From assembly GCA_965649115.1 (NCBI GenBank), contig CBFGJN010000003.1, positions 1-55,507 on the forward strand: 55,507 bases of DNA. Direction: 5' to 3'. Shown piece by piece: positions 2,298 to 49,518 of this stretch. The notes under the pieces are model-generated. The model ran no database searches. It had not been told where the DNA came from and worked only from the letters and a program-made list of their open reading frames with translations. The DNA comes from a candidate division WOR-3 bacterium. Its GTDB lineage: Bacteria > Hydrothermota > Hydrothermia > LBFQ01 > DSFT01. Positions within the stretch are counted from its first letter, which is position 1. Every line of letters begins with the position of its first letter. Both the position numbers and the translations under genes were made by a program.

Positions 2298-4019
2298 CTA
2301 TTGAACAACAACTTTATAATTTTCTTTATTTATTCTAACAATATAAACACCTCTATTCACATTAAAGATAATATCATTTCCAACTTTTCTATCAATTAGA
2401 GAACCATTCACATTATATAATGAAATAACAGCGCCTTTATCCATAGTCTTAACCTTAATTTGACCTTTCAAAGCAGTTATAGAATAATTAGAACTCTTAG
2501 AAATTTCAGAAACATCAACAACAATTAGAGTATCTTGGAATTGACCATTGCTATAAGATACGCCTTCCTTAGCTAACCAATTATATGAACCAGTAGTGGC
2601 ACCGGCACTTAAAGCATTGCAGTGTATATCAGTTGAACCATCTTGAGGACTTAAATAAGCAATAATAAGTGTATCTTGATTTGTTATTGAAAGATCTCTC
2701 GAGCCTACTCTTGCTGGCCATACGAAATCTTCAAGCTTATTAGGATTATTATTCCAATTTACTTTCCTTAAACCCCAGCTACTTCCACCGTCATTACTAG
2801 CAATATAGAAAATATCTTTTGGGGAATTTGTAGTTCTATTTGTTCCACAACCTGAATTCGTTGAATCAGTCCATTGAACAAAGAGGATAACAATTTTATT
2901 ATCTCCATTTATTGCTAACTTAGGTTGATGAGCAAATGGAAGTTTATCTTGAACACTATTATTAAACCAAGGTGCCCATATCCATTGTTTAATAGGTTTC
3001 GTCCAATCTATATTACCACTAGCAGTTCTTGTATATTTTTGTAGGACTAAAATGTGAGAAACTGTCGTATCATTATATGGAACAGGTGATTCTTGAAGTG
3101 AATAGAGAACATAAACATAATTTGATGTAAATCTGACATCTATATCAAAAAGTGAGCTAAATGTTTTACCTACTATTGTAAATGCATAAAGAGCAAGTGT
3201 ATCAATAAGGTTAGCACTAGCGGGATCTGGATTTGTTGTTCCATCTTTTCTAATTAAGAAATATCCAACTTTGTTTTGGGTAGGACTTCCAGCTGTGTTA
3301 TCAAGACCAACGACATAAACTGAATCACCGCTTATATCAACTGCATATGGTGAAATACCAAAGTTAGTAGTTGGATCTCTAACAGCAATAGGAGAACCTA
3401 TTAAAGCATTACTTATTGCATCATAAAAACCAAGATAAACAGCATATGTACTTGCTGTGAATCCTATAAAAGCAAATGTATCATTACCCACTTTATAACC
3501 TATACTTCTATATGTTCCAAGGTTACCAGTAGCAACGGGTGGGCTACCAACTTTACCTATGGACATATTACCCCAGTTACCACCAACTAATTCTGGCCAT
3601 GAGCAAACGGGTGTTCCATTTGATGTAAAGCCAACAGCACTTGGATACCTACCATTTGAATTTCCATTTATATTACCAGCTGTATTCCAGGTTTGCCCCC
3701 TATTATAACTCCAAGCGGCTCCAACTCTTCCAGAACCGCCAGCGGGATCTACTCTTCTAAAGCAAAAGAGAATGCTATCACCATTAGCAGAAACATAAAC
3801 AGGTTTGTGAAGTGTTGAAAGCAAACCATATTGATTTACTGAACTATCCTTATATATATCAACAAAAGCAAACGTTTGAGCAGGATTCTTGGGATTGTAG
3901 TAGGAAACTCCCCTTTCAACATAGCCATATACTCTATTTAGCTTTGACAGATCAGCTTTTCCAGAAACTTGGGCACCCTTTACAAGTGCCATCTTGCTTA
4001 TCAAAATCAGCTCCATCAT
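2298..4019 (-). CDS. Secreted protein with Asp-box/BNR-like motifs and T9SS-type C-terminal domain
   Basis: SYNRGQTW and SNDGGSSW Asp-box-like motifs; C-terminus ISLYNVNG...RGVYIVRI..YKVVV; SD GGAGG. Confidence 0.65.
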   Translation of the reverse strand: MMELILISKMALVKGAQVSGKADLSKLNRVYGYVERGVSYYNPKNPAQTFAFVDIYKDSSVNQYGLLSTLHKPVYVSANGDSILFCFRRVDPAGGSGRVGAAWSYNRGQTWNTAGNINGNSNGRYPSAVGFTSNGTPVCSWPELVGGNWGNMSIGKVGSPPVATGNLGTYRSIGYKVGNDTFAFIGFTASTYAVYLGFYDAISNALIGSPIAVRDPTTNFGISPYAVDISGDSVYVVGLDNTAGSPTQNKVGYFLIRKDGTTNPDPASANLIDTLALYAFTIVGKTFSSLFDIDVRFTSNYVYVLYSLQESPVPYNDTTVSHILVLQKYTRTASGNIDWTKPIKQWIWAPWFNNSVQDKLPFAHQPKLAINGDNKIVILFVQWTDSTNSGCGTNRTTNSPKDIFYIASNDGGSSWGLRKVNWNNNPNKLEDFVWPARVGSRDLSITNQDTLIIAYLSPQDGSTDIHCNALSAGATTGSYNWLAKEGVSYSNGQFQDTLIVVDVSEISKSSNYSITALKGQIKVKTMDKGAVISLYNVNGSLIDRKVGNDIIFNVNRGVYIVRINKENYKVVVQ

Positions 4020-4034
4020 CCTCCTTACCTCCTT

Positions 4035-4982
4035 TTAAGGTTGTGTAGATAAAAACTCATAAAATTTTGATTTTATAGCACTTTGGTTATTATAAACCCA
4101 ACGTACATCATTTTTTATGTTACTTCCCCAATTATTATATGGCCAAGTTGAATAAACATCATGTAGTAAATTCGTTAAATTATAATAAAGCTCCAATTTA
4201 TATAAAATTCTTGCAAGATTAAAAACATTATCTGAATTTTTAAACCTTTTTACAATCCTTGGATTTAATGAATTTATAGGATTTGTAAAATATGCTAAAT
4301 AACCATATACCATAGCTTGACCAGGATTATCACTCAAATAACCCAAACCTGATGATAGAATAATGATATTCCAAAGCAAACTATCAATATCTTTAAGTGT
4401 AGGATTTGATACAGAATATATAATTGTATCATTTGCTTTTGGTAAATCACTTTGCTTAACATTACTATTTTGATCTAACACATGTGTAAAAGGTATTATA
4501 ATTTTATTTCTATTAAATGCATAAATAGATTTGAGTGAATTATTTAGGAATATGGAAGAAACTTCAAGAATTGGAGTATCAGATATTTGAATATAGTAAT
4601 AACCGAAATAAACACTATCATTTCCAACTTTTTGAGCGGATATTAAAATTGTATCGGGCATAGCGTTTAAAATAATTTTATTTACAACTTTCTTTAATGG
4701 TGGTTCTCCTTGTGCAAAAACTCCAGAGGATGAAAGGGAAAAAGCTTCTTGATATAAGGATAAAGAAGCGGAAGATAAGGCATTTCCATAATAAGCTTCC
4801 CTATCTTTACTATTTATTGAAAGTGCCTCAGAAAATAAATTCCTTGCTTTTGAAAACTCAAAAATTGAATAATTTCTCCAAGCTTCATTCATAATATCAT
4901 CATAGGTAATGGGTGTCTCAGATGGCGTTTTTTTAGCGGAGCAACCTAAAATTAGAAATGAAATAAAGATAAGTCTTTTCAT
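4035..4982 (-). CDS. Lipoprotein with N-terminal TPR-like repeats
   Basis: Lipobox LILGC; AWRNY..ARNLFSEAL..EAYYGNA helical repeat; SD AAGGAGG. Confidence 0.65.
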   Translation of the reverse strand: MKRLIFISFLILGCSAKKTPSETPITYDDIMNEAWRNYSIFEFSKARNLFSEALSINSKDREAYYGNALSSASLSLYQEAFSLSSSGVFAQGEPPLKKVVNKIILNAMPDTILISAQKVGNDSVYFGYYYIQISDTPILEVSSIFLNNSLKSIYAFNRNKIIIPFTHVLDQNSNVKQSDLPKANDTIIYSVSNPTLKDIDSLLWNIIILSSGLGYLSDNPGQAMVYGYLAYFTNPINSLNPRIVKRFKNSDNVFNLARILYKLELYYNLTNLLHDVYSTWPYNNWGSNIKNDVRWVYNNQSAIKSKFYEFLSTQP

Positions 4983-4994
4983 ACCCTAACCTCC

Positions 4995-7202
4995 TTAATT
5001 TATAACTTGCTTAAATCTAAACTTCTCTCCACTATACATAATCTCAAAGACATAAACACCTTTCTTAATAGGAATTTCAATAACATTTAAACCAACACTT
5101 AAATCCCTATCAAAATTATAAATTACTCTACCATTAACATCAAAAATCCTAATTTTAACATTACTATAAGACGGAAGTGTAAGAAGAAGGTTTTTATTCT
5201 CTACTTTGAAAGAAAAGTTATAAATAGGTTTTCCATTGGATACCTTATAATAACCACTACCGTTGAATTTCGCCATTAAATATCCATTTTCATAATAAGT
5301 AGTCAAAGGTTGATTTTCATAATAGATAATCTCATTATTTGAACCTTTTATATAAATATAGCCATCAAACTTAGCGTTGGAGAATATATAAAAACCTTCC
5401 GAAGTTCTCTTAACAATAACTGGATATTCTACATTATCATTATTCTTTATCTTTAAAAGACCATTATAAAGTAAAATAGTAGATTGAGGAGATAAATAAT
5501 CCAATTTTATCGTATCAGATGGATAAGTAGATGGGATATTATCAAATTTATCACGAAGATTAATAACAGAAAATATATAATCACCTTTTTGAACCTTAGA
5601 AAGAAGAATTTTTCCATAATAGACAATATCAGTTACCGTTTCTAATTCATCCAATTCTATTAGAGGCTTATATATTGGATCAGGCGTAGATAATTGAACA
5701 TAAGCTTTTGAACACTTACCAACATCAACGCATAACAAATCATTTGCTAATAGAAAAACTTCAAATGTATTTAATGAAAACTTATTTGGTAGTACAAAGA
5801 AAGAAGAAATTGTAGGAGGGGTTGTATCATTTATTGCGTATCTTATTTCAACTTTTATCTGATCTAAATTTATCATGAATAATCTTTCTCTTCCTCTTCT
5901 TAAACTATCAACTTTAAGTTTCAATGGATTTGTTGAAAGCTCAGAAACAGTTTTTGAAAGCGTATCAATTTTAAAAACTTTTATCTTTGAACTATCTATC
6001 CAATTCCAAACAATAGGTTTATTTGCTCCTGTGATTGCAGTAACAACGAAACCCTCTGCCGCATAAATAGGAAGAGAAAGCCACCTATCATTGTCAGCAC
6101 CACCAACACCTTTAAATATAGGAGATGTCCCTGTCCAAGGATATATCTCCTTATTCTGCAAGAAAGAATTTGAATAATTATATCCATAACCTTTTGAATT
6201 TAATAAATTTTTCAAATGGAACTCAACAATATAACTCTTAATTAAACTATCTGGAAATAAACTATAAAATTTATCGTAATTATCTGTTATCTTATTTTTC
6301 AAAGCACTTGCATCTTTCTCTTCAAGAAAATTAAACCAAAGATATGAAATTTGTGCTTGCGGGTCATCAAGTGTATTTGCCAAGTTAACCTGATTTATGT
6401 AAGGCACCGTAGGATTTATAGCAATGTTATACTTAAAAGTAGCATCAATTTGATCATTTACTACATAAAGCAAGTTTCTTGTATTACCTTGTCTAAAACC
6501 ATAGAACAATGAAGTATCATTTGAAGCTTTGGAGGCTAAGTAATATGCAATTTGAGAACGAGCAAAGTTATCCTCATTAGGTTTATAACTATACAAGACA
6601 TAATTTGTATATAAGAAATATAAAGCTTTCTTTAAGGAGTTTCTATTAAAGGACTTGGTACAATCACCATCAGATGAGCTTTCAGATGTTAAAACACTTG
6701 CACAATTTAGAACAATATATTCATGTCTTGGATATGGTGTACTTAGGGAATAATAAGGATCAAAATAACCAACAACATTATTTGGATTAACTAAACCCAA
6801 AGCATCACTAACATAAAAGCCACCAAGCACAACAAAAATTCTCGGATCATTATCAGAATCAAGAAAATTAGGACTATAACCAAAGTAATTAGTTAAATAG
6901 TTATCAACAGTTGGTTTAATTTGACTAAATAAAGTGTCTATGAGATTCGCTATTTTAACTGCAGTGTCAGGAGGAATAATGTACTTCTTAGGTATTTCCT
7001 GAATATAAACTGTGTCCATTGTAAGAACATAAATATAAGGAGTTTTTAAAATTACACGAGCATAACCACTATCCGAAGCTTCTATATAATCTTTTCTGAA
7101 TGTAAGCGAAAAATATGTAAGTGGAACTTGAACCCTATCACCAACATTAAGCTCAGCACTTGCTATTGAAAAAAATGAAAGAAATATAAAAAGCTTTCTC
7201 AT
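4995..7202 (-). CDS. Secreted metallopeptidase-fold protein lacking HEXXH, with T9SS-type CTD
   Basis: Signal peptide MRKLFIFLSFFSIASA; DSDNDPRIFVVL..VGYFDP..EYIVLN; C-terminus IRIFDVNGR..KGVYVFEI; SD AAGGAGG. Confidence 0.6.
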   Translation of the reverse strand: MRKLFIFLSFFSIASAELNVGDRVQVPLTYFSLTFRKDYIEASDSGYARVILKTPYIYVLTMDTVYIQEIPKKYIIPPDTAVKIANLIDTLFSQIKPTVDNYLTNYFGYSPNFLDSDNDPRIFVVLGGFYVSDALGLVNPNNVVGYFDPYYSLSTPYPRHEYIVLNCASVLTSESSSDGDCTKSFNRNSLKKALYFLYTNYVLYSYKPNEDNFARSQIAYYLASKASNDTSLFYGFRQGNTRNLLYVVNDQIDATFKYNIAINPTVPYINQVNLANTLDDPQAQISYLWFNFLEEKDASALKNKITDNYDKFYSLFPDSLIKSYIVEFHLKNLLNSKGYGYNYSNSFLQNKEIYPWTGTSPIFKGVGGADNDRWLSLPIYAAEGFVVTAITGANKPIVWNWIDSSKIKVFKIDTLSKTVSELSTNPLKLKVDSLRRGRERLFMINLDQIKVEIRYAINDTTPPTISSFFVLPNKFSLNTFEVFLLANDLLCVDVGKCSKAYVQLSTPDPIYKPLIELDELETVTDIVYYGKILLSKVQKGDYIFSVINLRDKFDNIPSTYPSDTIKLDYLSPQSTILLYNGLLKIKNNDNVEYPVIVKRTSEGFYIFSNAKFDGYIYIKGSNNEIIYYENQPLTTYYENGYLMAKFNGSGYYKVSNGKPIYNFSFKVENKNLLLTLPSYSNVKIRIFDVNGRVIYNFDRDLSVGLNVIEIPIKKGVYVFEIMYSGEKFRFKQVIN

Positions 7203-7218: not shown

Positions 7219-8193
7219 TCAAAACTTATAATGAATAGCTATCTGATTTATGGGTGGTAAAATACCCTTATTATAAAAACCATAATCTAAACCTATTCTA
7301 CCATAATTAATTCCCAAACCAAAATTTATACCATTTGCTCCATTAACAGCTTCATCAGAATTAACATATAATTTATAACCTGTCCTTATAAAAATTATAT
7401 TCATAAGCGAATATTCTAAACCCACATTATGACTTTCCAAATTATCAGTTGGGTGATTTAATTGATAAGCTAATAAAATTTTTCCATAAGCAGAAGATAA
7501 GATGGAAAGTGATAATCCAAAACTAAATATCGTTGGAAGTCTATAACTTGTATATGTTGAAGTGGTTTCAACAAGACCAGCTTCATAAAGGTACCTTGTA
7601 TATTGACCAGAGGGCTTCATATCAAAACCAAAATTTCTAATACTTGCAGCAATTACTAAATCTCTAAAACCAGTTATGTAATAAGTTCCAACATCAAGTG
7701 CTAAACTATAAGCATTTGAAAATCCTCCAAAACCTTCATATATTATTTTAGAAGATAATCCAAATGAGAACTTGTCAGTTAAAAATTTTGAAAAAGTAAA
7801 TCCAAGCTGAGTAGCAAGATAACTAAAAGTTCCTATGCTATTTATATTACCACTAGGATCTAATTCGTATCCCTCCATTCCACCAACATAAACACCAGAT
7901 GCCCAAAAACCTAAATTGCCTCTTTTGGAAGGAACAACATAAGAAACAGCAAAATTATTAACACCCCAAAAGAAACCTGCTAATCCATAAATTGTTTTTA
8001 AGTTCAAGGTAGATACAATTGCAGGATTTACAAATGGAGAAGTGCTAGATAAACTAACACCAACATCACCCATAGATTCACTTCTAACATCGTAAGGGAG
8101 AGACAAAAACTTTGCACCAGACTGACCAGCTTTTGATATTTGAGCATTTAAAAATCCAAGATAAACAAAAATAAATAAAAATATCCTTTTCAT
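7219..8193 (-). CDS. PorV/PorQ-like (UPF0164-type) outer membrane beta-barrel
   Basis: Signal peptide; KAGQSGAKFLSL..RSESMGD, FVNPA, alternating beta strands, C-terminal YKF. Confidence 0.8.
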   Translation of the reverse strand: MKRIFLFIFVYLGFLNAQISKAGQSGAKFLSLPYDVRSESMGDVGVSLSSTSPFVNPAIVSTLNLKTIYGLAGFFWGVNNFAVSYVVPSKRGNLGFWASGVYVGGMEGYELDPSGNINSIGTFSYLATQLGFTFSKFLTDKFSFGLSSKIIYEGFGGFSNAYSLALDVGTYYITGFRDLVIAASIRNFGFDMKPSGQYTRYLYEAGLVETTSTYTSYRLPTIFSFGLSLSILSSAYGKILLAYQLNHPTDNLESHNVGLEYSLMNIIFIRTGYKLYVNSDEAVNGANGINFGLGINYGRIGLDYGFYNKGILPPINQIAIHYKF

Positions 8194-8203: not shown

Positions 8204-10468
8204 CTATCTTAAAATCATAAATCTCAAAATCTTGTAATCACCATCTTTGTCAGATATTTTTGCTAAGTATATTCCAGGTGACACAAGAAAGCCATTTTTT
8301 GTTAATAAATTCCATCTTAAAGAACCAGAAGCCGGATTATTGTGATAAAGTGTAATAATATGATCGCCCGAAAGTGTGAATATATCAACCCTTGCAGATG
8401 GTGGTAAATTTTGAAATTCTATTTCCTGCGTTATCTTTGTAGCAGACCAAACAGCTGAACCTTTAAATGGATTAGGAACAATTCTAACTTTATCTTTCCA
8501 ATTTTCTTTTGAAGAAATCGGAGAACCAACATATAACGCTAATGGAGAACCATTAGCATCCTTGGCATAATTATCAAGAGAACTTTGTTGTGAAAGACCG
8601 TAAGTGGAAGGGTCAGCAGTTGGAAAGTCAAACGCACTAACAGCATAAAAGTAAGGAAATCCTGGCTTTACTGTTGTATCTTCATAAGTTCTAACGATAT
8701 TATCAAAGACTTGAACACCAACAGATTTTAAATCATTTAGTGAAAGACCAAATAAACTTTTAACAATTGAATCCTTCCTCCCATCGCTTGTTCCATTTTT
8801 AAATATAAGTGCTAAAAGAGAACCTTTATCAACACTATTGTTTTTCTTTAAAGGTAAGGTAAAGTTAGGATTGTAAAGAGTTCTGTAAACAGCATAACCA
8901 GCGAAATCTAATTCGTTTGTAACATAATCAGGTGTTATTTCTGGCTTATTATCCCAAACTAAAATAACTTTTCCGCTTTCTGAACTATATTTTAATGAAG
9001 GAGAAGGTGGCGGAATAGGTATTTTATAATGATTATCAGGAAATTTATCGGGATCAGGTTTGCAATTATCTGGATGTCCTGGATCGCAATTGCTACCTAA
9101 GTAGTATGTCCTATAAGCTATTTCAACAAGTTGCCTTGCGCCTAAAATATATTTCCCACCTTTATAATAATTATCAACACCACCATTCAAACCATAACCA
9201 ACACCTGTAACCAAAACCAATCTAATAGTATCAGGATAGGTAATAGAATAAGGACCAACTGTAAGAAGAAATCTATAATCAAATTGTGTGGCTCCAACAT
9301 TTAAAGGGACTGGAACAAATCTATAAAATTGAGTTTTTGCTATATGACCAGCCATATAGTAAAACATGTCTGGATTTGTAGCACCAGCATAAGGTGGGTC
9401 AGTTTCTATATTCCACCATTGATGAGCATGAGGTCTTACAATCCTACCACCAGGAAATGTACTATCATCAGGAGTTGGATCTGCATATATAAATGATGCA
9501 AAAATAAAACCAGGGCATCTTTTTATATTTTCAGAATTAACAAGTTTATCTCTTGCATCATAAAATATATAAGACATTCCTCTCGGAATTAAGTAGATGT
9601 ACTTTCTTCCATTTGGTAGTGTAGGTAAGTTGGTTGTATCAACACCTGCTTTTGCAGAAATTTGTCTTTCAATAGGGTCATCACCCCAAATAATATAACC
9701 ATCGGGAACATTATCAGGTTGCTCAATTGTAGTATCACCCAAAATAGTATATTTGTCTTCAAGACCAAAATTAACGCCATTTAAATAACTCAAAAGTGGG
9801 TCATCAGTAGAATAACCAGAAAGTGACAAGTATCTTGGATCCTCATCAATAACCTTTTTATAAAGTCCATCGTAAAAAACCAAATTATCGTACCAAAATG
9901 AGGTTCTCGTGCTAGCGGCACAAGCATCTGCATCAAACCAAACTCCAACAAAAACACTATCAATACTATTTGGTATATTACCCGATTTTAATGCTGGATC
10001 AAAAACAATTTTATATTCATGGATAAAGAATTGATTATATGGTCTATTAGGCCAGGAAAGTGTCCTCTCAAAAACCCTAACACCCAATCTGTTCCCACTA
10101 TTAGCATTTGTATTCTCTTTAAAAACCGCATAAACATCAAATGCAGATTTACCTGGTCCTATGTACTTAAAACCAGTCACAGGATTTATATAATTATCAT
10201 CTGACTCAAATTCATCATTATAAAATTCCGCACTTACTATTCCTCCACTTACATTAGCTCCAATCCATAAACCACCTCTATATAAGTAGTTTGAGATAAT
10301 GTTTGCGGGATAGTTATAAGAAATAGGGTCAGTTACATTATAGCCATATAAACCATTATTAAACTTTGAAGTAGATATTTCGCCTATGTTTATATGAACA
10401 TACTTTGTTGTTCCAAGTGGATAGTAATAAGAACCTCCAAACTTTGATAAAATCAATAAACTTATCAT
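8204..10468 (-). CDS. Large secreted protein with FlgD/T9SS-like C-terminal domain
   Basis: Start moved to MISLLILSK (SD GGAGG); YRGGLWIGA, FAGYAVYR, YFYAVSAFD (FN3-like), VRIVPNPF..WNLLTKNG..SPGIYL. Confidence 0.7.
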   Translation of the reverse strand: MISLLILSKFGGSYYYPLGTTKYVHINIGEISTSKFNNGLYGYNVTDPISYNYPANIISNYLYRGGLWIGANVSGGIVSAEFYNDEFESDDNYINPVTGFKYIGPGKSAFDVYAVFKENTNANSGNRLGVRVFERTLSWPNRPYNQFFIHEYKIVFDPALKSGNIPNSIDSVFVGVWFDADACAASTRTSFWYDNLVFYDGLYKKVIDEDPRYLSLSGYSTDDPLLSYLNGVNFGLEDKYTILGDTTIEQPDNVPDGYIIWGDDPIERQISAKAGVDTTNLPTLPNGRKYIYLIPRGMSYIFYDARDKLVNSENIKRCPGFIFASFIYADPTPDDSTFPGGRIVRPHAHQWWNIETDPPYAGATNPDMFYYMAGHIAKTQFYRFVPVPLNVGATQFDYRFLLTVGPYSITYPDTIRLVLVTGVGYGLNGGVDNYYKGGKYILGARQLVEIAYRTYYLGSNCDPGHPDNCKPDPDKFPDNHYKIPIPPPSPSLKYSSESGKVILVWDNKPEITPDYVTNELDFAGYAVYRTLYNPNFTLPLKKNNSVDKGSLLALIFKNGTSDGRKDSIVKSLFGLSLNDLKSVGVQVFDNIVRTYEDTTVKPGFPYFYAVSAFDFPTADPSTYGLSQQSSLDNYAKDANGSPLALYVGSPISSKENWKDKVRIVPNPFKGSAVWSATKITQEIEFQNLPPSARVDIFTLSGDHIITLYHNNPASGSLRWNLLTKNGFLVSPGIYLAKISDKDGDYKILRFMILR

Positions 10469-13400: not shown

Positions 13401-13724
13401 CCCTGTTTCTTGAAGTTTTATAATACCACCAAGAGGACTTATTGTTCTATCTGCTTCAACTACAAGATTTTTAAGAACAAATGGAGAATATCCAGTAAAT
13501 TCAACTTTTAAGGTATAAGTTCCTGGTGGAACTCTTAATAAAACAAATTCACCCTTATCATCAGTATATGTCCCAATACCAAGCTCTTCAATATAAACAG
13601 CAGCAGCTACAATTGGTTGTCCTGTCTTAGCATCCACAACCTTACCTGTAATCTTACCATATTGAGCGTAAGCTAAACTAAAAAATCCCAAAATAAAGGT
13701 TATAAGTATAAACAATCGTTTCAT
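10473..13724 (-). CDS. TonB-dependent receptor with N-terminal carboxypeptidase-regulatory-like domain
   Basis: Signal peptide; GKITGKVVDAKTG, plug motifs IRGGR..YVVDG and GGFGAEYGNAASGVV, LKPEKTISYELG, NVYNLFN; ATG 13724 preferred over GTG 13730 on SD spacing. Confidence 0.92.
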   Translation of the reverse strand: MKRLFILITFILGFFSLAYAQYGKITGKVVDAKTGQPIVAAAVYIEELGIGTYTDDKGEFVLLRVPPGTYTLKVEFTGYSPFVLKNLVVEADRTISPLGGIIKLQETGVVLQEQVVIAREPVVKKDLTASVDKIRSEKLQNLPVANVEQALQLQAGVRRYGGQLQIRGGRTGEVAYVVDGADLRDPYTNAGTPNLPLNAISEVSVSKGGFGAEYGNAASGVVEVVTKEGTDKYEFQLRTRTSDFGFLSNFYIGSKNIGLPIYNFLSTDKGDVYAKWFDRKYMGSYYDQIFGYEILRQKKYNDMNFKSDDPLFSDIKPLYTNGMPFPTTFYNQKQDLNRFEFTASGPIIKKYLRFSGTLDIQNSNGRFSRLNAGETNIMPNRNNQINYQAKITALPNQKIKIFGSFVGTRAWTSYWEPAWRIAPTHSAYSKTDIFGLIGGINFLISPKTYSEIRFSRYRNQTIWNSFEDINMDGIDDFSDRDKNGYVEIDTNALKSSVLVGNEVYSYFCSDLLNMIRNKPGFAKPTDIPGVVELRAFWWQTPIINCYPQQKRIALRLLVGITPSGDTVAVSDQLNVPIKDTLYRISGINVPNPLNYDRTAFGWRYNYTNQVKFDFVQQDFANLKGHEFKTGFEYRFIRLKQDIWDFASGGNVYPSVVDADPKEFAFYVRDKIEFEGLIANIGLRLDYFDPDAYVPADYEIPVKVNDNSDFANPDTLNGAWTWDNGYGIRRDTLNINNPVKVKPYYYISPRIGISHPISENDVLHFTYGHYFQVPLLARLYSNQWWIFSGAYPRQGNPALKPEKTISYELGIRHAFNPYMYIDVTGFYKDIYDLVQSQRYDMYEIDPITGQKVRIGKWYTVYVNSDYATVRGIEIQLSKQIGGGIGILNNLFFDINYTFQVARGSSSNPNSNYLNEYYGLAPGFTQEFYLDWDQRHGIVVNVGYTIPFIPQSPFKTGWGGSFVWNYGTALPYSPEIRTPRDYLELTNSLRFYSQSVANLNLYKSFVIRGLDLRLFSNVYNLFNNRVLITYSDQTYWFGYGPSSDACRNGLPTCLGERAAEGPSGDISVYSLPRITEIGFEINWRR

Positions 13725-15986: not shown

Positions 15987-15996
15987 AAGTTTCCAA

Positions 15997-16002: not shown

Positions 16003-16024
16003 AAGGGTGTTATTTTAGGCTTAA

Positions 16025-16206: not shown

Positions 16207-16212
16207 TAGCTT

Positions 16213-20940: not shown

Positions 20941-22098
20941 ACCTTCAATTCCAATTACTTCAACCTTATCGTCCTTCAATATATTATCGTTGCTTTGTGC
21001 AAACCAAATTTCTCCAAGAACAATAACTCTACCTTCACCTTTCTGAAAATTCTCAATAGCAACACCAACTTTACCAATAATTGATTCTGAACCCGTTTGA
21101 GGCTTTTGTTTGAGTGCCTTAATAGCAAAAGCAATTATTACAAAAAAGAAAATTAATGTTAATAATAGAGCAGTCAGAATACTAAAAATTGATATTCTTA
21201 TTTGGGGATTAGAAATATCAAAAAGCATTAATGAACCAATTAAAAACGATATTGTTCCACCAATAGCCAAAAAACCACCTGTTTGTAATTTTATTTCTGC
21301 AAAAAATAAAATGAATGCTATAATAATTAACAATAAACCTACCAAATTAGCACTTAAAACTTGAAGAGCAAATAACGATAAAAGCAAAGCAATAACTCCA
21401 ATAGTTCCTGATATACCCCAACCTGGACTTGCAAGTTCAAATATAATTCCATATAAACCTATAATCAAAAGAAAATAAGCTATATTTGGGTCAGCTATTT
21501 TTTCAAGAATTTTTTCTCTCAAACTCATATCAAGCTTATCAATAACTTTGTTTTTTACACCTATACTATCAAGCAATTCATTAACATTATCAACTAAATA
21601 GTCAATAAGTCCAAATTCTTTCATTTGTGATGAAGAATAAGACTTTGCATATATTACAAAACTATCAGACCAAAATTCTGGCTTATTTCTTATCTTTAAT
21701 ATACTCTTTAAAAAAGCATTTGCATCATTCATAACCTTCTTTTGCATAACAGAATCCATTCCACCTGTTAGAGAAACAGGACTAGCAGAACCGATATTTG
21801 TACCACTTGCCATAGCGGTAATGTGAGAAGCAAGAACGATAAAAACACCAGCAGAAGCAGCCCTTGAACCACTTGGATAAACATAAGCTATTATCTTAAC
21901 TTTTGAATTCAATATTTCTTTAACAATTTCTCTCATAGCACTTTCAAGACCACCAGGAGTATTTATAATCATCAATATAAAATCGTAATTTTTTTCATTA
22001 GCTATTTTAATTGCTCTTTTAACATAACTTGAAGTAACTGGCGTTATCGGTCCATTTATTTCAATTTGAAGGATATTAGAAATTATACAAAAAAGCAT
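20905..22098 (-). CDS. nfeD: NfeD family membrane-bound serine protease
   Basis: INGPIT, INTPGG, SRAASAG, TM block, C-terminal OB fold GEGRVIVLGEIW; start moved to MLFCIISN. Confidence 0.92.
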   Translation of the reverse strand: MLFCIISNILQIEINGPITPVTSSYVKRAIKIANEKNYDFILMIINTPGGLESAMREIVKEILNSKVKIIAYVYPSGSRAASAGVFIVLASHITAMASGTNIGSASPVSLTGGMDSVMQKKVMNDANAFLKSILKIRNKPEFWSDSFVIYAKSYSSSQMKEFGLIDYLVDNVNELLDSIGVKNKVIDKLDMSLREKILEKIADPNIAYFLLIIGLYGIIFELASPGWGISGTIGVIALLLSLFALQVLSANLVGLLLIIIAFILFFAEIKLQTGGFLAIGGTISFLIGSLMLFDISNPQIRISIFSILTALLLTLIFFFVIIAFAIKALKQKPQTGSESIIGKVGVAIENFQKGEGRVIVLGEIWFAQSNDNILKDDKVEVIGIEGLTLKVRKINSS

Positions 22099-22105
22099 TA
22101 TTAAA

Positions 22106-22111
22106 ATTTTA
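22106..22111 (-). promoter_or_regulatory. -10-like box GCTT-TAAAAT
   Basis: 7 nt before ATG 22098; 21 nt from MITE G. Confidence 0.65.
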
Positions 22112-22132
22112 AAGCAAAAAGCCAAAATGACT

Positions 22133-22325: not shown

Positions 22326-23309
22326 ATGTTTTTCATTATAGCTTATAAACTTATGGATATATTTCCAAACTTGAAATTTAACAATCCTGTGTATATGATA
22401 AATGAGCCTTCTGATGACAAAACTTTTTATGTAGTTGAACAGGTCGGAATTATCTTAAGAATAAAAAATAATAAAATTGATACTTTCTTAGATGTCAGAG
22501 ACAAAGTCAAATATGGTGGTGAAATGGGACTCTTAGGTATGGCTTTAAGCCCAAAATTTAAAGAAGACGGAAAGTACTATATTTCATATACGAATAAACA
22601 AATGTTTTCAATTGTTGAAGAAAAGGATATTAAAAATAAAAATTATTCACGAATTTTATTAAAAGTTAAACAACCTTTTGCAAATCATAATGGTGGTGAT
22701 ATAAAATTTGGTCCTGATAATTATTTGTATGTTGGCCTTGGAGATGGAGGTTCAGCAGGAGACCCCTTAAACAATGCTCAAAATCCTAACAGTTTATTAG
22801 GTAAAATTTTAAGAATAGAGGTAAATACGGGAAAAATTGAAATTTACGCATCGGGTTTGAGAAATCCTTGGCGTTTTTCATTTGATGGAAAAACATTATG
22901 GGTTGGAGATGTAGGACAGGATAGATGGGAGGAAATAGATACTATTATAAGAGGAGGAAATTATGGCTGGAGATGTTATGAGGGAAATCATCCTTATAAC
23001 TTAAATGGTTGTAAAAGTAAAGAGAATTATATTTTTCCTGTTTGGGAATATAGAAGAGATAATGGAAATTGTTCTATTATAGGTGGGTATGTATATAGAG
23101 GAAATGAGTTAAAGGAATTAATAGGAAGTTATATATTCGGTGATTTTTGTTCTGGAAGAATTTGGGCTTTAAAGAAAATAAATAATGGTTTCAAGTCAGA
23201 ACTTCTAATAGATAGTGAAATAAACATATCTTCATTTGCTATTGACAACCAAAATGAAATATATGTTATAGACCATACAGGCGGGAAAATTTATAAAATT
23301 GTTAAGTAG
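22326..23309 (+). CDS. PQQ-dependent glucose/sorbosone dehydrogenase family
   Basis: GEMGLLGMALSP, NHNGGDIKFGPD.YLYVGLGDGG, GLRNPWRFSFD, GGNYGW. Confidence 0.92.
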   Translation: MFFIIAYKLMDIFPNLKFNNPVYMINEPSDDKTFYVVEQVGIILRIKNNKIDTFLDVRDKVKYGGEMGLLGMALSPKFKEDGKYYISYTNKQMFSIVEEKDIKNKNYSRILLKVKQPFANHNGGDIKFGPDNYLYVGLGDGGSAGDPLNNAQNPNSLLGKILRIEVNTGKIEIYASGLRNPWRFSFDGKTLWVGDVGQDRWEEIDTIIRGGNYGWRCYEGNHPYNLNGCKSKENYIFPVWEYRRDNGNCSIIGGYVYRGNELKELIGSYIFGDFCSGRIWALKKINNGFKSELLIDSEINISSFAIDNQNEIYVIDHTGGKIYKIVK

Positions 23310-27945: not shown

Positions 27946-27956
27946 ACAATGAACTT

Positions 27957-27962
27957 TAAAAT
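27957..27962 (+). promoter_or_regulatory. -10-like box ACTT-TAAAAT
   Basis: 7 nt before ATG 27970. Confidence 0.65.
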
Positions 27963-27969
27963 TTAAAAA

Positions 27970-30120
27970 ATGCTTTTAATACTAATTATTCAAATTTTCT
28001 ATGAAGATTTTGAAAATTCCTTATTTCCACCAACTGGATGGACAAATACAGGAACAAGAAGCACACTTTGGGTAAGAAGGACAAGTGGTGTAGCTTTTGG
28101 AACTGCTTCTGCTGGTGTCTCAGTTGCTCAAACTTCATCAGAAACTGGGACTGCAATCCTTCAAACACCAATTATAAACCTTCCATCAATAAACCCAAAT
28201 GATACGATAATTTTCTCATTTTATTATAAACTTCCATCTGTTGGAGGTGCTTTTGATACAAGATTTAGATCAACAGATACATTAAAAGTTCAAATATCAA
28301 ATGATGGCAATAATTGGACAAATTTAATTGTTTGGGATTCAACAAGTTTATATACAGGAGCAAATAATCAACCAAAAAAGGTTCAATTTAATATATCCTC
28401 CTATCAAAATACAAATATTTATATTAGATGGATTTTTATAGATAATACATCACTAACGGATGCTTCTAATTCATATTTCAATATAGATTCTATTTTTATC
28501 GTAATTAAGCAAGGTCTTCCACAATCTCCATATATTCCAATAGACAGCATTCAAAAAACTGTTTATCAAGGAACTGATAGTTCAATTTTTTCAGGACAAA
28601 GTATTAGAACAAGTGGAATAATTGTTGAAGTTGGTAAATATAATTCAAAGGGGTTTCATATCAAAATGAAAAATGGTGGTCCATATTCAGGAATATATAT
28701 TTATACGACGAATTTAGTAGGATTATCAAAAGGTGATTCAGTTATGGTAGAAGGAATTGTAAAAGAGTACTATAAATACACAGAAATTGTTCCCTCAAAT
28801 ATCCAAATTATTAGTCATAATAACTCATTTAAAATTGATACACTGACAACAGATTTAATAAGTTCATCAAATCCAGATAATGCAGAAAAGTACGAAGGTG
28901 TTTATATCTTCATAAAAAAGGCTATTGTGATAGATAATACAAATTCTTATAGATATGAAATTAAAAATGGAATTTTAAGTGCTTACTTGTCAAAATTTAA
29001 TGTTCCAAATTTAAATTTAAATGATATCATTTCAGTTTGGGGTGTCCTGGTTTATGAATATGGAGAATATAGAATTTATGCAGATAGCATTTACATTCAT
29101 CAATTTCCTTATAAAATTGATAAAATCATTTATGGTTATTACGATAGTCTAATTTTGAAATTCAAAAAAGTTTTTAGTCCAAATTCAAATTCCTATATTA
29201 AATTTTCTGTTTCCAATTTAATGAGGGATACAACAATTTTTGACACTGATAGTTTTAATTTTACTATTAAACTAAGTTCGCTTAACAGAGGTCTTTACAA
29301 TGCCAATATCCAAATGATTTATAATAATGATACTACAAATTTCTCATTTTTATTACCATATCCAAATGGTTTTAGTTGTTTATTGGTAAATGAATTTGAT
29401 GATTATCCAACCAAAGATGAATTTATTGAAATAAAGAACTATTGCCAATATCCAGTAAATATTGGAGGATTATATGTAAAAAGTTATTCGGGAACCAATA
29501 TCTATACAAGTTCCCCATTTGATAATATAACCTTAGAGCCAAATGGAATTTTCGTTTTCATATATGATACATTTCAAAATAATATATGTCAAAGATATAA
29601 CTTAAATAATTGTAAGGCTTTAAGTAAATGGACTTATATAAATTATCAACAGCCTATGGTTATATCAACACCAGAAGGTTTCGCAATTGACTCCATTTGG
29701 TACGATTCTTATTGGGGAGGAAGAGATCCATATACAACTATAAGGGTTAATCCAAACGAAAAAGGTTGGACGAGAAGTGCATGGGGACCCTCATCTATTC
29801 CAGGAGGAACACCAGGAAAAGATAACGATATTTACATAAGCGATGAACAAGATATTGAGGTAAATAAAAAAGATTTAGCAAAAGGAGATATTTTAAGTTT
29901 TGCTTTTAATTTAAAGGAAGAAACAAATAATGTTTATATTTATCTTTACGATGATGCAGGAAGGTACATAGATAGAATCTATTATGAAAAAAATTATATC
30001 ACAAGAAAAGGAATTGTGTTTTATAACACATCAAGGCTAAAACCAGGAATTTATATTGTTGCAATTACAGTTGATGGAAAAACAAGAAATAAAATTGTTT
30101 TTAGAATAAGACCAAAATGA
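27970..30120 (+). CDS. Secreted multidomain protein: MAM/adhesin-like N-terminus, OB folds, lamin-tail domain, T9SS-type CTD
   Basis: YEDFENSLFPPTGW; GQSIRTSGIIV and AEKYEGVYI OB-like units; LLVNEF..DEFIEIKN (LTD); IYLYDDAGR..LKPGIYIVAI. Confidence 0.7.
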   Translation: MLLILIIQIFYEDFENSLFPPTGWTNTGTRSTLWVRRTSGVAFGTASAGVSVAQTSSETGTAILQTPIINLPSINPNDTIIFSFYYKLPSVGGAFDTRFRSTDTLKVQISNDGNNWTNLIVWDSTSLYTGANNQPKKVQFNISSYQNTNIYIRWIFIDNTSLTDASNSYFNIDSIFIVIKQGLPQSPYIPIDSIQKTVYQGTDSSIFSGQSIRTSGIIVEVGKYNSKGFHIKMKNGGPYSGIYIYTTNLVGLSKGDSVMVEGIVKEYYKYTEIVPSNIQIISHNNSFKIDTLTTDLISSSNPDNAEKYEGVYIFIKKAIVIDNTNSYRYEIKNGILSAYLSKFNVPNLNLNDIISVWGVLVYEYGEYRIYADSIYIHQFPYKIDKIIYGYYDSLILKFKKVFSPNSNSYIKFSVSNLMRDTTIFDTDSFNFTIKLSSLNRGLYNANIQMIYNNDTTNFSFLLPYPNGFSCLLVNEFDDYPTKDEFIEIKNYCQYPVNIGGLYVKSYSGTNIYTSSPFDNITLEPNGIFVFIYDTFQNNICQRYNLNNCKALSKWTYINYQQPMVISTPEGFAIDSIWYDSYWGGRDPYTTIRVNPNEKGWTRSAWGPSSIPGGTPGKDNDIYISDEQDIEVNKKDLAKGDILSFAFNLKEETNNVYIYLYDDAGRYIDRIYYEKNYITRKGIVFYNTSRLKPGIYIVAITVDGKTRNKIVFRIRPK

Positions 30121-35414: not shown

Positions 35415-37397
35415 TTAAAAGTTTATAATTTTGCTTTTATAATTTAAATTTCCTCTTATTTCAATGAAATATATACCTTTTGGTAAATTTAATGGCATTT
35501 CAATAAGGTTTTTATTAGTTTGTAAATTTTTACTTAAAACAATTCTTCCAGAACTATTGTAAATTTTTAATTCATAATTTCCAATTCTTGGAATTGAAAG
35601 TTTTAATTTATTATCCTTAATTTTGACAGATATAAATTCATTTTCAGGAATAAGGGCTACTGATGTTTGGTCAATATAGTGATTTGGATAATCAGGAATT
35701 ATTGTTGTAGGCTCTTTTATAAAATTAAAATAAAATGTTTGACTTGAAAGTGAATCTATATTTATTGTAGTATCAATTTGACTATTATCTGAAAATTTTA
35801 TTCTTATTGGATATTTTGGTATTTTGAACCTTGCCCAATTGTTAGGTTGATTTTGATTTACTTTAATATAAAAATCATAAGTTGAGCCATTGAAATTCTT
35901 TGATATTAAAAATTGAAATTGTGGATGTCCTGGCTTAAATATCCATTGATTGAAGAAATAACCTATGGATGTATCCTTATTTTCATTATTCAAGAATTCT
36001 TTAATGTCATTTTCAAAATCAATAATTCTTGCATAGGAAAATTTTCTCTTATTTCCATAATATCTTAATGCTTCAAAAAACTTATTATCACCCGTAGCAC
36101 TATCGTTGTAAATAACTCTAAATAACAATCTTAAAGCATGTAAAACAGCACTTCCTTTACTATAAGTTATATTCCCGTCAAAAACATCACCGAGACTTGG
36201 TCCTGGATTGTAAATTGGTTTGTTATAATCACCATAATTTAAATATCTGTTTATATCGCCATGTATTTGTCCTAAATATCCTCTATTGTTTCCATAGTCA
36301 CCATAACCCAAATTATTCTCATCATAAATTGCTTCTGAAAATGTTGCAAAACTTTCATTTATAAAAATATCTTTAAATGTAGCACAAGTTACCATATTAC
36401 CCCACCAGTGATGTGAAAGTTCATGAGCACTTAAAATTTCATAATTCGTAGCTATTGTAAATGTATTTGTTTGATTTTCCATAGCACCACCAAAGAAACC
36501 TTGAAATATCTGAACTTCCGCATACTTTTCATCATAAAATGGATAAATTCCATATTTGTTAGAAAAGATTGTAAGTTGATTTGGTAAATATGATGAAGGA
36601 CCATTATTATTTGGACCTAAGTAATGATAAATAGGCATAGATATATTATTGTAATTCCAAGTTTGAGTTTGGATTGTAAATTGATTTGAGGAAGCAAAAA
36701 CTATTAAATAGGGAGCTATTGGATGGCCTTCTTTATAATGATAAGTTATCCAATTTCCTTCAATTATTGAATCAATAAGTTTTCCATTTGCTATTGTTTT
36801 CCAACCAATTTTCGTTTTAATTTTAGCATCTACTATTTGAGCCTTTTCATATGGTAAATCAAAGCTTGGTAGCCATCTTCTCAATCCAAAAGGTTCATTA
36901 TCCGCATAAACAATATCATTCTGCTTTAAGTCAAGACCTCCACCAAATGAAGAGCCTGCTCTATTTGTTATTCCATGATAGTAAATTTCCACTCTAAAAC
37001 TATCATTAGGGTTTATTGTAGAAGGAAATTTTACTATTATTAAAGTATCACCAGGTGTGTAATAATTGAAAGGTTTGTAATTCCCGTTATGGAAAAATTT
37101 AATAGAATCAATAATCAAATTGTTTTTAACTGTATCAGTCCAATACGGAACAACATAAAAACCTTTTATAAAATGAAGGTAGATACTATCAGTTGGATCA
37201 ATTGCTTTAAATGTGATTTTATTATAAGCATTTAGAATAGGCCTTAAATTTTGGGCATTTTTTATGCTATCTATCCATATAAAATAATCGTACTTTATAA
37301 CCTTGAAGGTCTTATATTCAACATCTGGCCAAGTATAGGATAGAATTTCAATTTTTTGAAGGTTCTTTTCAGGAATAAAAGTAAGTAGATAAAACAT
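35415..37397 (-). CDS. M1 family zinc aminopeptidase with T9SS-type CTD
   Basis: GAMEN, HELSHHWWG + NESFATFSE, YSKG; C-terminus LKIYNSSGR..LPKGIYFIEI. Confidence 0.92.
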   Translation of the reverse strand: MFYLLTFIPEKNLQKIEILSYTWPDVEYKTFKVIKYDYFIWIDSIKNAQNLRPILNAYNKITFKAIDPTDSIYLHFIKGFYVVPYWTDTVKNNLIIDSIKFFHNGNYKPFNYYTPGDTLIIVKFPSTINPNDSFRVEIYYHGITNRAGSSFGGGLDLKQNDIVYADNEPFGLRRWLPSFDLPYEKAQIVDAKIKTKIGWKTIANGKLIDSIIEGNWITYHYKEGHPIAPYLIVFASSNQFTIQTQTWNYNNISMPIYHYLGPNNNGPSSYLPNQLTIFSNKYGIYPFYDEKYAEVQIFQGFFGGAMENQTNTFTIATNYEILSAHELSHHWWGNMVTCATFKDIFINESFATFSEAIYDENNLGYGDYGNNRGYLGQIHGDINRYLNYGDYNKPIYNPGPSLGDVFDGNITYSKGSAVLHALRLLFRVIYNDSATGDNKFFEALRYYGNKRKFSYARIIDFENDIKEFLNNENKDTSIGYFFNQWIFKPGHPQFQFLISKNFNGSTYDFYIKVNQNQPNNWARFKIPKYPIRIKFSDNSQIDTTINIDSLSSQTFYFNFIKEPTTIIPDYPNHYIDQTSVALIPENEFISVKIKDNKLKLSIPRIGNYELKIYNSSGRIVLSKNLQTNKNLIEMPLNLPKGIYFIEIRGNLNYKSKIINF

Positions 37398-37403
37398 TTT
37401 GAA

Positions 37404-37409
37404 ATTTTA
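37404..37409 (-). promoter_or_regulatory. -10-like box CCCT-TAAAAT
   Basis: 6 nt before ATG 37397. Confidence 0.65.
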
Positions 37410-37423
37410 AGGGATAATTTTTT

Positions 37424-37627: not shown

Positions 37628-37635
37628 AGAGTTAG

Positions 37636-37815: not shown

Positions 37816-37904
37816 TAATTTTTTTGCCTTCAAATTAAACCTTAAGTAATTTGAGCAAACCTCACCCATTCTAAAAATAAGGTGGAGACTTGAAAGTAAT
37901 ATTT

Positions 37905-45722: not shown

Positions 45723-45736
45723 AAAATAAATTGAAA

Positions 45737-45742
45737 ATTTTA
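45737..45742 (-). promoter_or_regulatory. -10-like box CTT-TAAAAT
   Basis: 14 nt before ATG 45722; 22 nt from MITE O. Confidence 0.55.
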
Positions 45743-45764
45743 AAGATAAATAAACCTTATAAAT

Positions 45765-45929
45765 TGCTGTGTCTAGTAATTCTGAAATATAGATTATTTC
45801 TTATTTTGCCCGCCCACCCTGAAAATAAGGCTTCGCCCCCCTATAATCCCCCATAAAATCAATAATTTCTTTAAAAATTTTATAAGTTATTGATAATCAA
45901 GGATTTAACAATAATTATTGGACAAAGCA
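45765..45929 (+). mobile_element. MITE-like element, copy O (165 bp) with perfect 9-bp TSD
   Basis: CTTATAAAT|TGCTGTGTCTAGTAAT...ATTATTGGACAAAGCA|CTTATAAAT. Confidence 0.95.
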
Positions 45930-45945
45930 CTTATAAATTTAACTT

Positions 45946-48589: not shown

Positions 48590-48605
48590 CACACCATTTA
48601 AAAAT

Positions 48606-48784
48606 TGCTTTGTCTAGTAAATAATATTAAGTTGCTGATTAATTATGAATTTTACGGGGGGACTTTATGGGGGGCAGAGCCCCCCACTGCCGAAAAATGG
48701 GCATTTTAAAGCCGTAGGCTTTAATTTTGGGCGGGTGGGGAAAACATAGAAAAATAAATAGTATCAGAATTATTGGACAAAACA
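48606..48784 (-). mobile_element. MITE-like element, copy P with perfect 9-bp TSD
   Basis: TTTAAAAAT|TGCTTTGTCTAGTAA...TTATTGGACAAAACA|TTTAAAAAT; GGGGGGC-AGA-GCCCCCC; AAAGCC-GTA-GGCTTT. Confidence 0.92.
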
Positions 48785-48799
48785 TTTAAAAATCACCTT

Positions 48800-48805
48800 T
48801 AAACT
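48800..48805 (+). promoter_or_regulatory. -10-like box CCTT-TAAACT
   Basis: 5 nt before TTG 48811 (or 8 nt before TTG 48814). Confidence 0.6.
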
Positions 48806-48810
48806 TTCAA

Positions 48811-49518
48811 TTGTTGATAATTTTCCTTTTATTTGACTTACCAAATGACCCAAAAACATTATATGAAGTTGCATTAAATGAATTTAAAAACAAAAATTAT
48901 AAGCAAGCTGAAAAAATTTTAAAAAGAATTATTTATTCGTTTTCACCTAATGAATGGACTGATAAAGCACAGTTTTATTTAGCACTTTTATATTATGAAA
49001 TAAAAAATTATGAACTTGCAAAGATTGAAGCAGAATTCTTTGTAAATAATTTTAAATATAGTGAATTTTATCCAAATGGTTTAATTTTACTTGCAAAAAT
49101 TTATTATAAATTATCACCAAATCCACATAAAGATATATCTGAACTTAACAAAGCAATTGAAATTTTAAATAGAGTTAAAACATTGTATCCAAGTTATAGT
49201 CAATCAGCTGATAGTATAATGTTCCTAATTAGAAAAAAATTTGCCCAAAAAATTTTAATTTCTGCCAATGTTTATAGAAACATTGAAAAACCAAAATCAG
49301 AAGCAATTTACCTTGAATACTACTTAAATAATTACATTGATATTGAACCTGATTCAGTAGCATATAGACTACTTGAAATATACGAAACTTTAAATGAAAA
49401 AGAAAAAATTATTAATTTAACTGAATTAATTCTCAAAGGTGATAATTTTTCTTCATGGATAAAAAAAGTAGCCCTTGAGAAACGAGATAAATATGGCTAT
49501 CGCTCTGATAGGAGGTAG
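48811..49518 (+). CDS. bamD: Outer membrane protein assembly factor BamD
   Basis: TPR pattern LYEVALNEFKNKNY..DKAQFYLA..FVNNFKYS; KFAQKILISANVY; no lipobox visible. Confidence 0.8.
   Translation: MLIIFLLFDLPNDPKTLYEVALNEFKNKNYKQAEKILKRIIYSFSPNEWTDKAQFYLALLYYEIKNYELAKIEAEFFVNNFKYSEFYPNGLILLAKIYYKLSPNPHKDISELNKAIEILNRVKTLYPSYSQSADSIMFLIRKKFAQKILISANVYRNIEKPKSEAIYLEYYLNNYIDIEPDSVAYRLLEIYETLNEKEKIINLTELILKGDNFSSWIKKVALEKRDKYGYRSDRR

Follow-up and report, generated by a model that had tools for sequence, protein, structure and literature searches.

The stretch of DNA analysed here, the complete contig C3 (CBFGJN010000003.1; 55,507 nucleotides, hereafter the window) of the candidate division WOR-3 bacterium assembly GCA_965649115.1, contains seven genes whose products begin with a hydrophobic stub of a few residues in place of a signal peptide. 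From comparisons within this genome and with its relatives, we consider it probable (roughly 0.6) that these stubs and others of their kind in the genome are real, extremely shortened Sec-type signal peptides of the signal peptidase I class without a basic N-terminal region (n-region). The original prediction had proposed a minimal-signal export route, or an uncleaved N-terminal anchor, for the seven genes. The minimal signal is supported by the exported nature of its carriers, by conserved hydrophobicity and by alignment with paralogues, whereas a separate route is not, SecY, SecA and the signal peptidase I LepB being ordinary. Since these three components are present and ordinary, use of the Sec pathway with an unusually short signal is the simplest reading.

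The source genome (1.85 Mb, 99 contigs, 27.6% guanine plus cytosine, GC) probably belongs to the genus Ca. Thermoproauctor, the Pyropristinus type 2 population of Octopus Spring with 27-29% GC (PMC4791363), which lives at 82-84 °C (PMC11696919). The whole analysis was sequence-based. Open reading frames (ORFs) were called with translation table 11, yielding 1755 ORFs that covered 90% of the genome; both the caller and the classes into which the N-termini were sorted are heuristic. A mini N-terminus (n=170) was defined as Met, 0-2 uncharged residues and then at least 4 residues that are all strictly hydrophobic; no longer uncharged stretch was allowed to follow, and the uncharged run within the first 35 residues had to stay <11.

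In four intragenomic paralogue families, a single member has a conventional signal and at least one other has a stub. In all four, the stub's Gln aligns with the Gln at +1 of the conventional Ala-Gln (A-Q) cleavage site, the mature parts are in register, and the stub forms show a gap of 7-15 residues relative to their conventional paralogues. Examples are MRSFYLILFFFGVLNAQAWSGLRTYGG aligned with MAMLF, seven gap positions and VIELQIWAGLKTYGG, and MLRLLITITLFISIGYAQTSKIVW aligned with MIFLIIS, ten gap positions and QINKIIW. Because the Gln residues coincide in four families, the stubs are descendants of ordinary 17-23-residue signal peptides, from which the n-region and most of the hydrophobic core (h-region) were lost while the cleavage-site end was kept. 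This alignment is also the strongest argument that at least those stubs ending in a small residue followed by Gln would still be cut ahead of the Gln.

Genome-wide, 170 of the 1755 ORFs have mini N-termini, and their anatomy is narrow. The last residue of the hydrophobic run is number 5 in 43 cases, 6 in 78, 7 in 38, 8 in 9 and 9 in 2, and the run hence comprises 4-8 residues, short of the h-region of about 7-15. The first residue behind the run is Ser in 32% and Asn in 16%, followed by Thr, Ala, Gln and Gly; Ser, Asn, Thr, Ala or Gly stands there in 120/170. Gln peaks at positions 8-9, reaching 18% at position 8 versus 2.1% in the proteome (8.5-fold), and the strict motif ending in Gln is found at 3.1% of N-termini versus 0.2% of internal Met positions. 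Where Gln occurs at positions 6-11 (n=59), the -1 residue is Ser, Asn, Thr, Gly or Ala in 33 stubs and the -3 residue Leu or Ile in 48. The pattern of Ser, Thr, Asn, Gly or Ala before Gln, present in about one third of the cases, argues for cleavage. Lys or Arg at positions 2-6 was counted in 4% of the mini N-termini, 16% of the proteins with a C-terminal domain (CTD) for secretion and 63% of all ORFs, so that the absence of a positively charged n-region, noticed before in the window examples, holds for nearly all mini N-termini of the genome.

The carriers belong to exported families. Por_Secre_tail, the tail of type IX secretion system (T9SS) cargo, was matched 45 times in the genome, of which 44 lie within called ORFs, and the survey of CTD proteins suggested by the original prediction found 25 of these 44 to bear a stub (odds ratio 14, p 2.4e-15), with a conventional signal in only about six. 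Ten further proteins with a stub plus Gln were scanned with Pfam and include OmpA, a TonB-dependent receptor (TBDR), M16 and S8 peptidases, a PD40 (TolB-like) propeller and LVIVD proteins; BamA of this genome is stub-bearing as well. Membership in exported families thus comes together with positional homology to known signals. Other kinds of targeting sequence fit the stubs poorly: no Cys follows them as in a lipobox, Lys or Arg at positions 2-6 is nearly absent and no twin-Arg as in Tat signals was seen in the stubs inspected, and polar or charged residues at positions 7-12 end the run well before the approximately 18 or more hydrophobic residues of a signal anchor.

The seven N-termini of the window, which all translate as previously described, are listed in Table 1 together with promoter motifs and internal controls. 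Pfam assigned NfeD, the glucose/sorbosone dehydrogenase family (GSDH; pyrroloquinoline quinone-dependent sugar dehydrogenases), an M1 peptidase with Por_Secre_tail, and BamD/YfiO without the lipobox Cys, in agreement with the earlier family assignments. The CTD claims fared less well: that of the 573-residue protein corresponds to a weak PF18962 match (E 0.003), and the 754-residue protein gave neither a CTD match nor any Pfam family in the Pfam scan. In NfeD, the NfeD1b_N domain begins immediately behind the stub. Paralogues and orthologues of the 573-residue protein begin MMELILITK and MLEIILIAK, and a paralogue of the 716-residue protein, MMLFIISQIFYEGFEG, has a GGAGG site. As a separate observation, MMELILISK, MMELILITK and MLEIILIAK represent an acidic sub-type, M-x-E-L-I-L-I-(S/T/A)-K, common to paralogous large T9SS-tailed proteins (positions 3996-4019 in the window; position 21011 of contig C28; two further loci); MISLLILSK at 10445-10468 resembles it but has no Glu. 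For a signal peptide of any kind, acidity at position 3 is odd.

Table 1. Stub N-termini, promoter motifs and conventional or lipoprotein signals located in the window.
Feature	Position	Strand	Gene or remark
Stub MMELILIS	3996..4019	-	573-residue T9SS-tailed protein, gene 2298-4019; AAGGAGGT 8 nt upstream; in-frame TAA 5 codons upstream
Stub MISLLILS	10445..10468	-	754-residue protein, gene 8204-10468, within TBDR/PorV-like cluster; GGAGGAGG 7 nt upstream
Stub MLFCIISN	22075..22098	-	NfeD, gene 20905-22098; alternative TTG at 22125
Stub MFFIIAYK	22326..22349	+	GSDH family, gene 22326-23309; in-frame stop 3 codons upstream
Stub MLLILIIQ	27970..27993	+	716-residue T9SS-tailed protein, gene 27970-30120; in-frame stop 1 codon upstream
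Stub MFYLLTFI	37374..37397	-	M1 peptidase with T9SS tail, gene 35415-37397; in-frame stop 3 codons upstream
Stub MLIIFLLF (TTG start)	48811..48834	+	BamD/YfiO without lipobox, gene 48811-49518
Promoter motif CTTTAAAATTT	22104..22114	-	between the TTG at 22125 and the ATG of NfeD
Promoter motif CTTTAAAATTT	27953..27963	+	ahead of the 716-residue protein gene
Promoter motif CCTTAAAATTT	37402..37412	-	4 nt ahead of M1 peptidase start codon
Promoter motif CTTTAAACTTT	48797..48807	+	3 nt ahead of BamD start codon
Conventional signal MKRLFILITFILGFFSLAYA, followed by Q	13656..13724	-	TonB-dependent receptor; internal control; aligns with mini-signal receptor MLNLIFS-Q
Conventional signal MKRIFLFIFVYLGFLNA, followed by Q	8140..8193	-	PorV-like protein; internal control
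Conventional signal MRKLFIFLSFFSIASAE	7152..7202	-	T9SS-tailed protein, gene 4995-7202
Lipoprotein signal MKRLIFISFLILGC	4935..4982	-	K/R n-region retained

Across four independent metagenome-assembled genomes (MAGs) of the genus, the residues of the stubs vary yet stay hydrophobic, and selection acts on the stub. BamD begins MLFLLFL, MLFFLLL and MFILLYM in three other genomes of the genus, each directly ahead of DLPxDPK. The sister genus and every other genus of the class have a BamD with a normal lipoprotein signal and Cys; the lipobox Cys was lost in this genus only. With the stub abutting DLPxDPK and no Cys in between, BamD is therefore not a lipoprotein here. The M1 peptidase, whose homologues occur in 'Candidatus Hydrothermia bacterium' and 'candidate division WOR-3 bacterium' and, more distantly, in 'Candidatus Caldipriscus sp. 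T1.2', begins MIFLFTF, MFFFLSF and MILFIHF in three other members of the genus, each with a TAA 3 codons upstream; the Caldipriscus homologue begins MIIFLAQ. T9SS-tailed proteins lack a Lys/Arg n-region in 16/17 cases in a second member of the genus, in 14/17 in the sister genus (about 50% GC), in 5/7 in a genome at 59% GC from a different family of the order, and in 8/12 in a closed genome from yet another family of the class, where the signals are longer (13-20 residues). In three genomes from other WOR-3 classes, 13/15 have Lys or Arg, and all signals comprise at least 17 residues. In a series of BamA proteins from 50 genomes, 8-9-residue starts of the form M...Q were found in families f1, f2 and f5, whereas the remaining class families that were examined have starts of 10-15 residues. 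BamA signals are conventional in most other WOR-3 classes and short in three outgroup families (f15, f28, f36). Because of these comparisons of CTD proteins, BamA, BamD and the M1 peptidase, the trait is best described as derived, graded, class-wide (Hydrothermia) and independent of GC content.

Conventional signals coexist with the stubs in the same window, as had been noted: the TBDR starts with MKRLFILITFILGFFSLAYAQ and the PorV-like protein with MKRIFLFIFVYLGFLNAQ, and two others are present. Genome-wide, about 15 proteins have conventional signals ending in A-Q, and about 55 lipoproteins have MK or MR followed by an h-region and a lipobox. The n-region was lost in the signal peptidase I class only. 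The lipoprotein signals are also short, with 11-16 residues ahead of the Cys, and keep one or two Lys/Arg residues (e.g. at 664-702 and 4935-4982). Separately, a 585-residue ORF at 18671-20428 is rich in aromatic/Gly, beta-strand-like repeats, resembles an outer-membrane protein and has no Pfam match; its product begins MGMLHITFGLFVDVPK, which does not fit a conventional signal and is not clearly a mini signal either.

The original prediction had also advised inspecting SecA, SecY, LepB and the signal recognition particle (SRP) for unusual features. For SRP the outcome was unexpected, as it is absent from the whole class; the other three are present and look ordinary. LepB occurs in 39/41 relatives. 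This genome is among them, and the enzyme has its N-terminal anchor and the SGSMEDTL catalytic box, so loss of signal peptidase I was dismissed as an explanation. Besides, the box is identical in all six class members aligned (LepB of this genome: contig C51, 2572-3249); the signal peptidases I of E. coli and Bacillus have Pro where these enzymes have Asp, and the membrane anchor in the class has only about 12 residues between charged residues. SecY is highly conserved and aligns normally with the Aquifex and E. coli proteins; its plug and transmembrane segments TM2b, TM5, TM7 and TM10 match the sister genus. A prl-like SecY was discarded, as the plug, the pore ring and the F286/I408-equivalent (PrlA4-equivalent) positions do not differ from those of the sister genus and of E. 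coli. SecA is present. YidC is present too, with a short C-terminal tail, which disposes of a YidC with an Oxa1/YidC2-like ribosome-binding tail as a substitute for SRP.

For SRP, the Ffh model TIGR00959 had no match in this genome or in 12 close relatives. The survey was extended to 151 WOR-3 genomes, including 38 from the class of the window (several 100% complete). Ffh scored above the cut-off in 76 genomes and was partial in a few fragmented ones, all outside the class; FtsY, picked up by the same model (E ~1e-60), occurred in many of these genomes, again all outside the class. In the 38 class genomes, this model gave best matches of E 1e-4 to 1e-5 for Ffh/FtsY, or nothing. The SRP RNA model RF00169 was positive in 84 genomes, none of them in the class (the large SRP RNA family was not searched). 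In this genome, no tblastn match to two outgroup Ffh proteins had an E value below 0.17, a search for the conserved core of SRP RNA allowing four mismatches was negative, and a leftover Ffh M-domain was ruled out, the sole weak tblastn match being ribosomal protein S4. Ffh, FtsY and SRP RNA are also jointly missing in about 29 genomes of the WOR-3 families f12, f18, f22, f24-f27 and f33, and jointly present in the remaining 84 or so. Because this map of SRP loss is wider than that of the mini signals and does not coincide with it, the loss is not treated as their cause; it is a striking companion trait and may have had a permissive role. In the part of the literature that was searchable, no description of a free-living SRP-less bacterial clade was found.

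How the stubs would work can be outlined in a few steps. A free N-terminus with a short hydrophobic run would suffice to engage SecA/SecYEG, and in this lineage there would be no SRP competing for hydrophobic N-termini or sorting them. Where a junction of a small residue and Gln is present, LepB would cut ahead of the Gln, and the new N-terminal Gln could cyclise to pyroglutamate, as under the Q-rule of the Bacteroidota; where it is missing, as in BamD and the M1 peptidase, the stub may remain attached. Lipoproteins use a separate, still conventional signal bearing Lys or Arg. Both export and cleavage of the stubs are what we infer from these patterns. The fuller proposal, that the class gave up SRP together with the tripartite signal and that a peptide of 7-9 residues (Met, 5-7 hydrophobic and one small residue, then Gln) is all that Sec export and cleavage by signal peptidase require, is tentative, and we rate its chances at somewhat below even.

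Several points weigh against shortened, cleaved Sec signals. In E. coli, according to Hikita and Mizushima and to Chou and Kendall, a signal without positive charge reportedly requires its hydrophobic core to be lengthened rather than shortened, and a peptide of 7-8 residues could hardly span the distance from the cytoplasmic face to the active site of signal peptidase. Therefore, recognition and geometry would have to differ here, or some stubs are never cut. In the SecY alignments no lineage-specific change was seen that would explain relaxed signal recognition. The junction of a small residue with Gln occurs in only about one third of the stubs, and BamD (LLF before DLP) and the M1 peptidase (LTF before IPE) offer no acceptable -1 residue. 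Among the 170 mini calls, roughly 20-30 are probably false positives, namely cytoplasmic proteins starting with a hydrophobic strand such as thiolase and aspartokinase. Finally, the link to SRP is imperfect: BamA has a conventional signal in families f22, f26 and f27, although these lack SRP, and the SRP-positive families f28, f15 and f36 have rather short BamA starts.

Alternatively, the stub could be a hydrophobic tag that assists entry into SecYEG or passage through it and is never removed. Being short and uncharged, it would not be retained in the inner membrane, and in some proteins, such as BamD, it would serve as a peripheral membrane anchor in place of the lost lipid. BamD, in which only this genus has exchanged the lipobox Cys for seven hydrophobic residues directly ahead of DLPxDPK, fits this, as do the bulky residues at the would-be -1 position of the M1 peptidase and many others; the absence of Lys and Arg would also remove the usual 'positive-inside' retention of the N-terminus. 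However, the junction of a small residue with Gln is enriched and aligns exactly with the A-Q site of conventional paralogues, although an uncleaved tag needs no such site, and LepB is retained. As a general explanation the tag is unlikely, while an uncleaved anchor is possible for stubs without a terminal small residue, for example those of BamD and the M1 peptidase.

Less probable again, with a small chance in our estimate, is recognition by another factor (ribosome-bound SecA, YidC or an uncharacterised protein) that reads Met plus 5-7 hydrophobic residues at the extreme N-terminus and delivers the protein outside the classical SecA/SecB post-translational route. The class-wide absence of Ffh, FtsY and SRP RNA, the unusually uniform position (run end at residue 5-7) and composition of the signal, and the E. 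coli rules outlined above, which predict failure of such signals, would all suit such a reader. Against it, no candidate factor was found, YidC is without a ribosome-binding C-terminal tail, SRP loss and mini signals are not related one-to-one across the WOR-3 families, and conventional signals coexist in the same cells.

All readings in which the stubs are genuine N-termini depend on correct start codons, and the in-frame stops that had been reported just upstream of four of the seven starts were recovered one to five codons ahead (Table 1). In NfeD, an in-frame TTG at 22125 would yield a 17-residue N-terminus, MAFCFKILIMLFCIISN; the promoter motif CTTTAAAATTT (22114-22104) lies between this codon and the ATG. 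The gene at 8204-10468 has a TTG at 10495, but this codon overlaps the gene's own ribosome-binding site GGAGGAGG. The two operon-internal genes starting at 4019 and 10468 possess strong GGAGG sites at normal spacing, and the other five stub genes of the window start 3-7 nt behind CTTTAAAATTT. Apart from the four sites in Table 1, this motif has 18 more sites in the window; genome-wide it lies upstream of 429/1755 ORFs, 6-11 nt from the start codon (counted from its TAAAAT core), and this suggests the -10 region of leaderless or near-leaderless promoters as its best reading. The copy ahead of the M1 peptidase fixes a leaderless or near-leaderless start of this gene. Among 168 stubs for which start constraints were computed, the upstream in-frame stop lies at a median distance of 4 codons, no upstream in-frame start codon exists in 141, and a GGAGG-type Shine-Dalgarno site or a TAAAAT promoter box is present at 111.

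An artefact or decay, i.e. true starts further upstream hidden by a missed start, a frameshift in a poly-A run coding for Lys or a recoded stop, or proteins that are no longer exported, is very improbable and already largely refuted: Lys-rich n-regions would be indel-prone A-runs in a genome of 27.6% GC and several examples lie directly behind a mobile repeat, but no ATG-Lys-rich start exists in the three upstream frames of any window example, the same stub with the same upstream stop recurs in at least four independent MAGs from different studies, signals of this kind are also found in relatives at 41-59% GC, genes inside operons that have a strong GGAGG site bear stubs as well, and the carriers include essential outer-membrane machinery (BamA, BamD). 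Individual variants were rejected on the same grounds. A frameshift or indel hiding the n-region is contradicted by the missing ATG-Lys start and the agreement of independent MAGs, and a recoded stop or another genetic code by the 90% coding density and long ORFs obtained with table 11, the upstream stops being ordinary TAA codons. Truncation by a promoter-seeking repeat element and AT mutational bias both conflict with the operon-internal GGAGG genes and with the stubs in relatives at 41-59% GC; AT bias would moreover favour Lys (AAA).

The repeats themselves form a dense intergenic family of about 150-200 nt situated just upstream of promoters, with two GC-rich hairpins (GGGGGGCnnnGCCCCCC; AAGCCnnnGGCTT) as well as GGGTGGGTGGG and TTACTAGACAAAGCA. 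Copies in the window lie at 15986-16263, 22143-22278, 25475-25760, 27673-27900, 32770-33021, 37385-37822, 45726-45937 and 48595-48810, and a genome-wide pattern count gave 229 copies of the GGGTGGGTGGG box.

If most non-lipoprotein exported proteins of this lineage travel on a signal of about eight residues without a basic n-region, this would challenge the assumed minimum for SecA/SecY engagement and signal peptidase access, and would call for signal recognition and membrane geometry beyond current models, possibly with N-terminus-first engagement of SecA at the ribosome. Standard predictors would then miss most of the lineage's secretome, and existing predictions of secretome, outer-membrane proteins and T9SS cargo for WOR-3/Hydrothermia are probably large underestimates. 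With Ffh, FtsY and SRP RNA jointly missing from a class of free-living bacteria, the question also arises how its membrane proteins are targeted. For this lineage, neither short signals nor a loss of SRP is mentioned in the part of the WOR-3, Pyropristinus and signal-peptide literature that was covered. One member of the class, strain sy37, is in culture (PMC12285271), and the question is therefore directly testable.

Compared with canonical Sec/signal peptidase I signal peptides, the stubs likewise stand at the N-terminus of periplasmic, outer-membrane and secreted proteins, and they share the hydrophobic core and a small residue ahead of the presumed cut; their descent from such peptides is clear, and SecY, SecA and LepB are present. 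They differ in lacking the Lys/Arg n-region and in size, with 7-9 residues and a run of 4-8, in contrast to about 18-25 residues and a run of about 7-15. The Bacteroidota Q-rule describes Gln at +1 of signal peptidase I sites, which is converted to pyroglutamate (PMC5837995, PMC10653852). A pattern of this type is seen here in WOR-3: conventional signals end in A-Q (13656-13724, 8140-8193 and 35353-35406 in the window, and genome-wide), and about one third of the mini signals have Ser, Thr, Asn, Gly or Ala before Gln at the aligned position. Plant-type glutaminyl cyclase (PF05096) is absent from all 41 class genomes searched and was dropped as support for the rule; the mammalian-type enzyme was not searched. 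Gln may also cyclise spontaneously at about 80 °C. The prl (secY/secE/secA) suppressors and minimal poly-Leu signals of E. coli illustrate that a crippled or very short signal can still allow transport by Sec once channel gating is relaxed. Unlike in prl strains, however, short signals would here be the natural state of a whole class, with the SecY plug, pore-ring and PrlA4-equivalent positions unchanged. SRP has been lost in mitochondria and in extremely reduced insect endosymbionts (PMC8321541), and the joint absence of Ffh, FtsY and SRP RNA is shared with them. Here, in contrast, it concerns free-living hyperthermophiles (82-84 °C; PMC11696919) with genomes of 1.2-2.3 Mb and a full outer-membrane proteome, and it spans a class and more.

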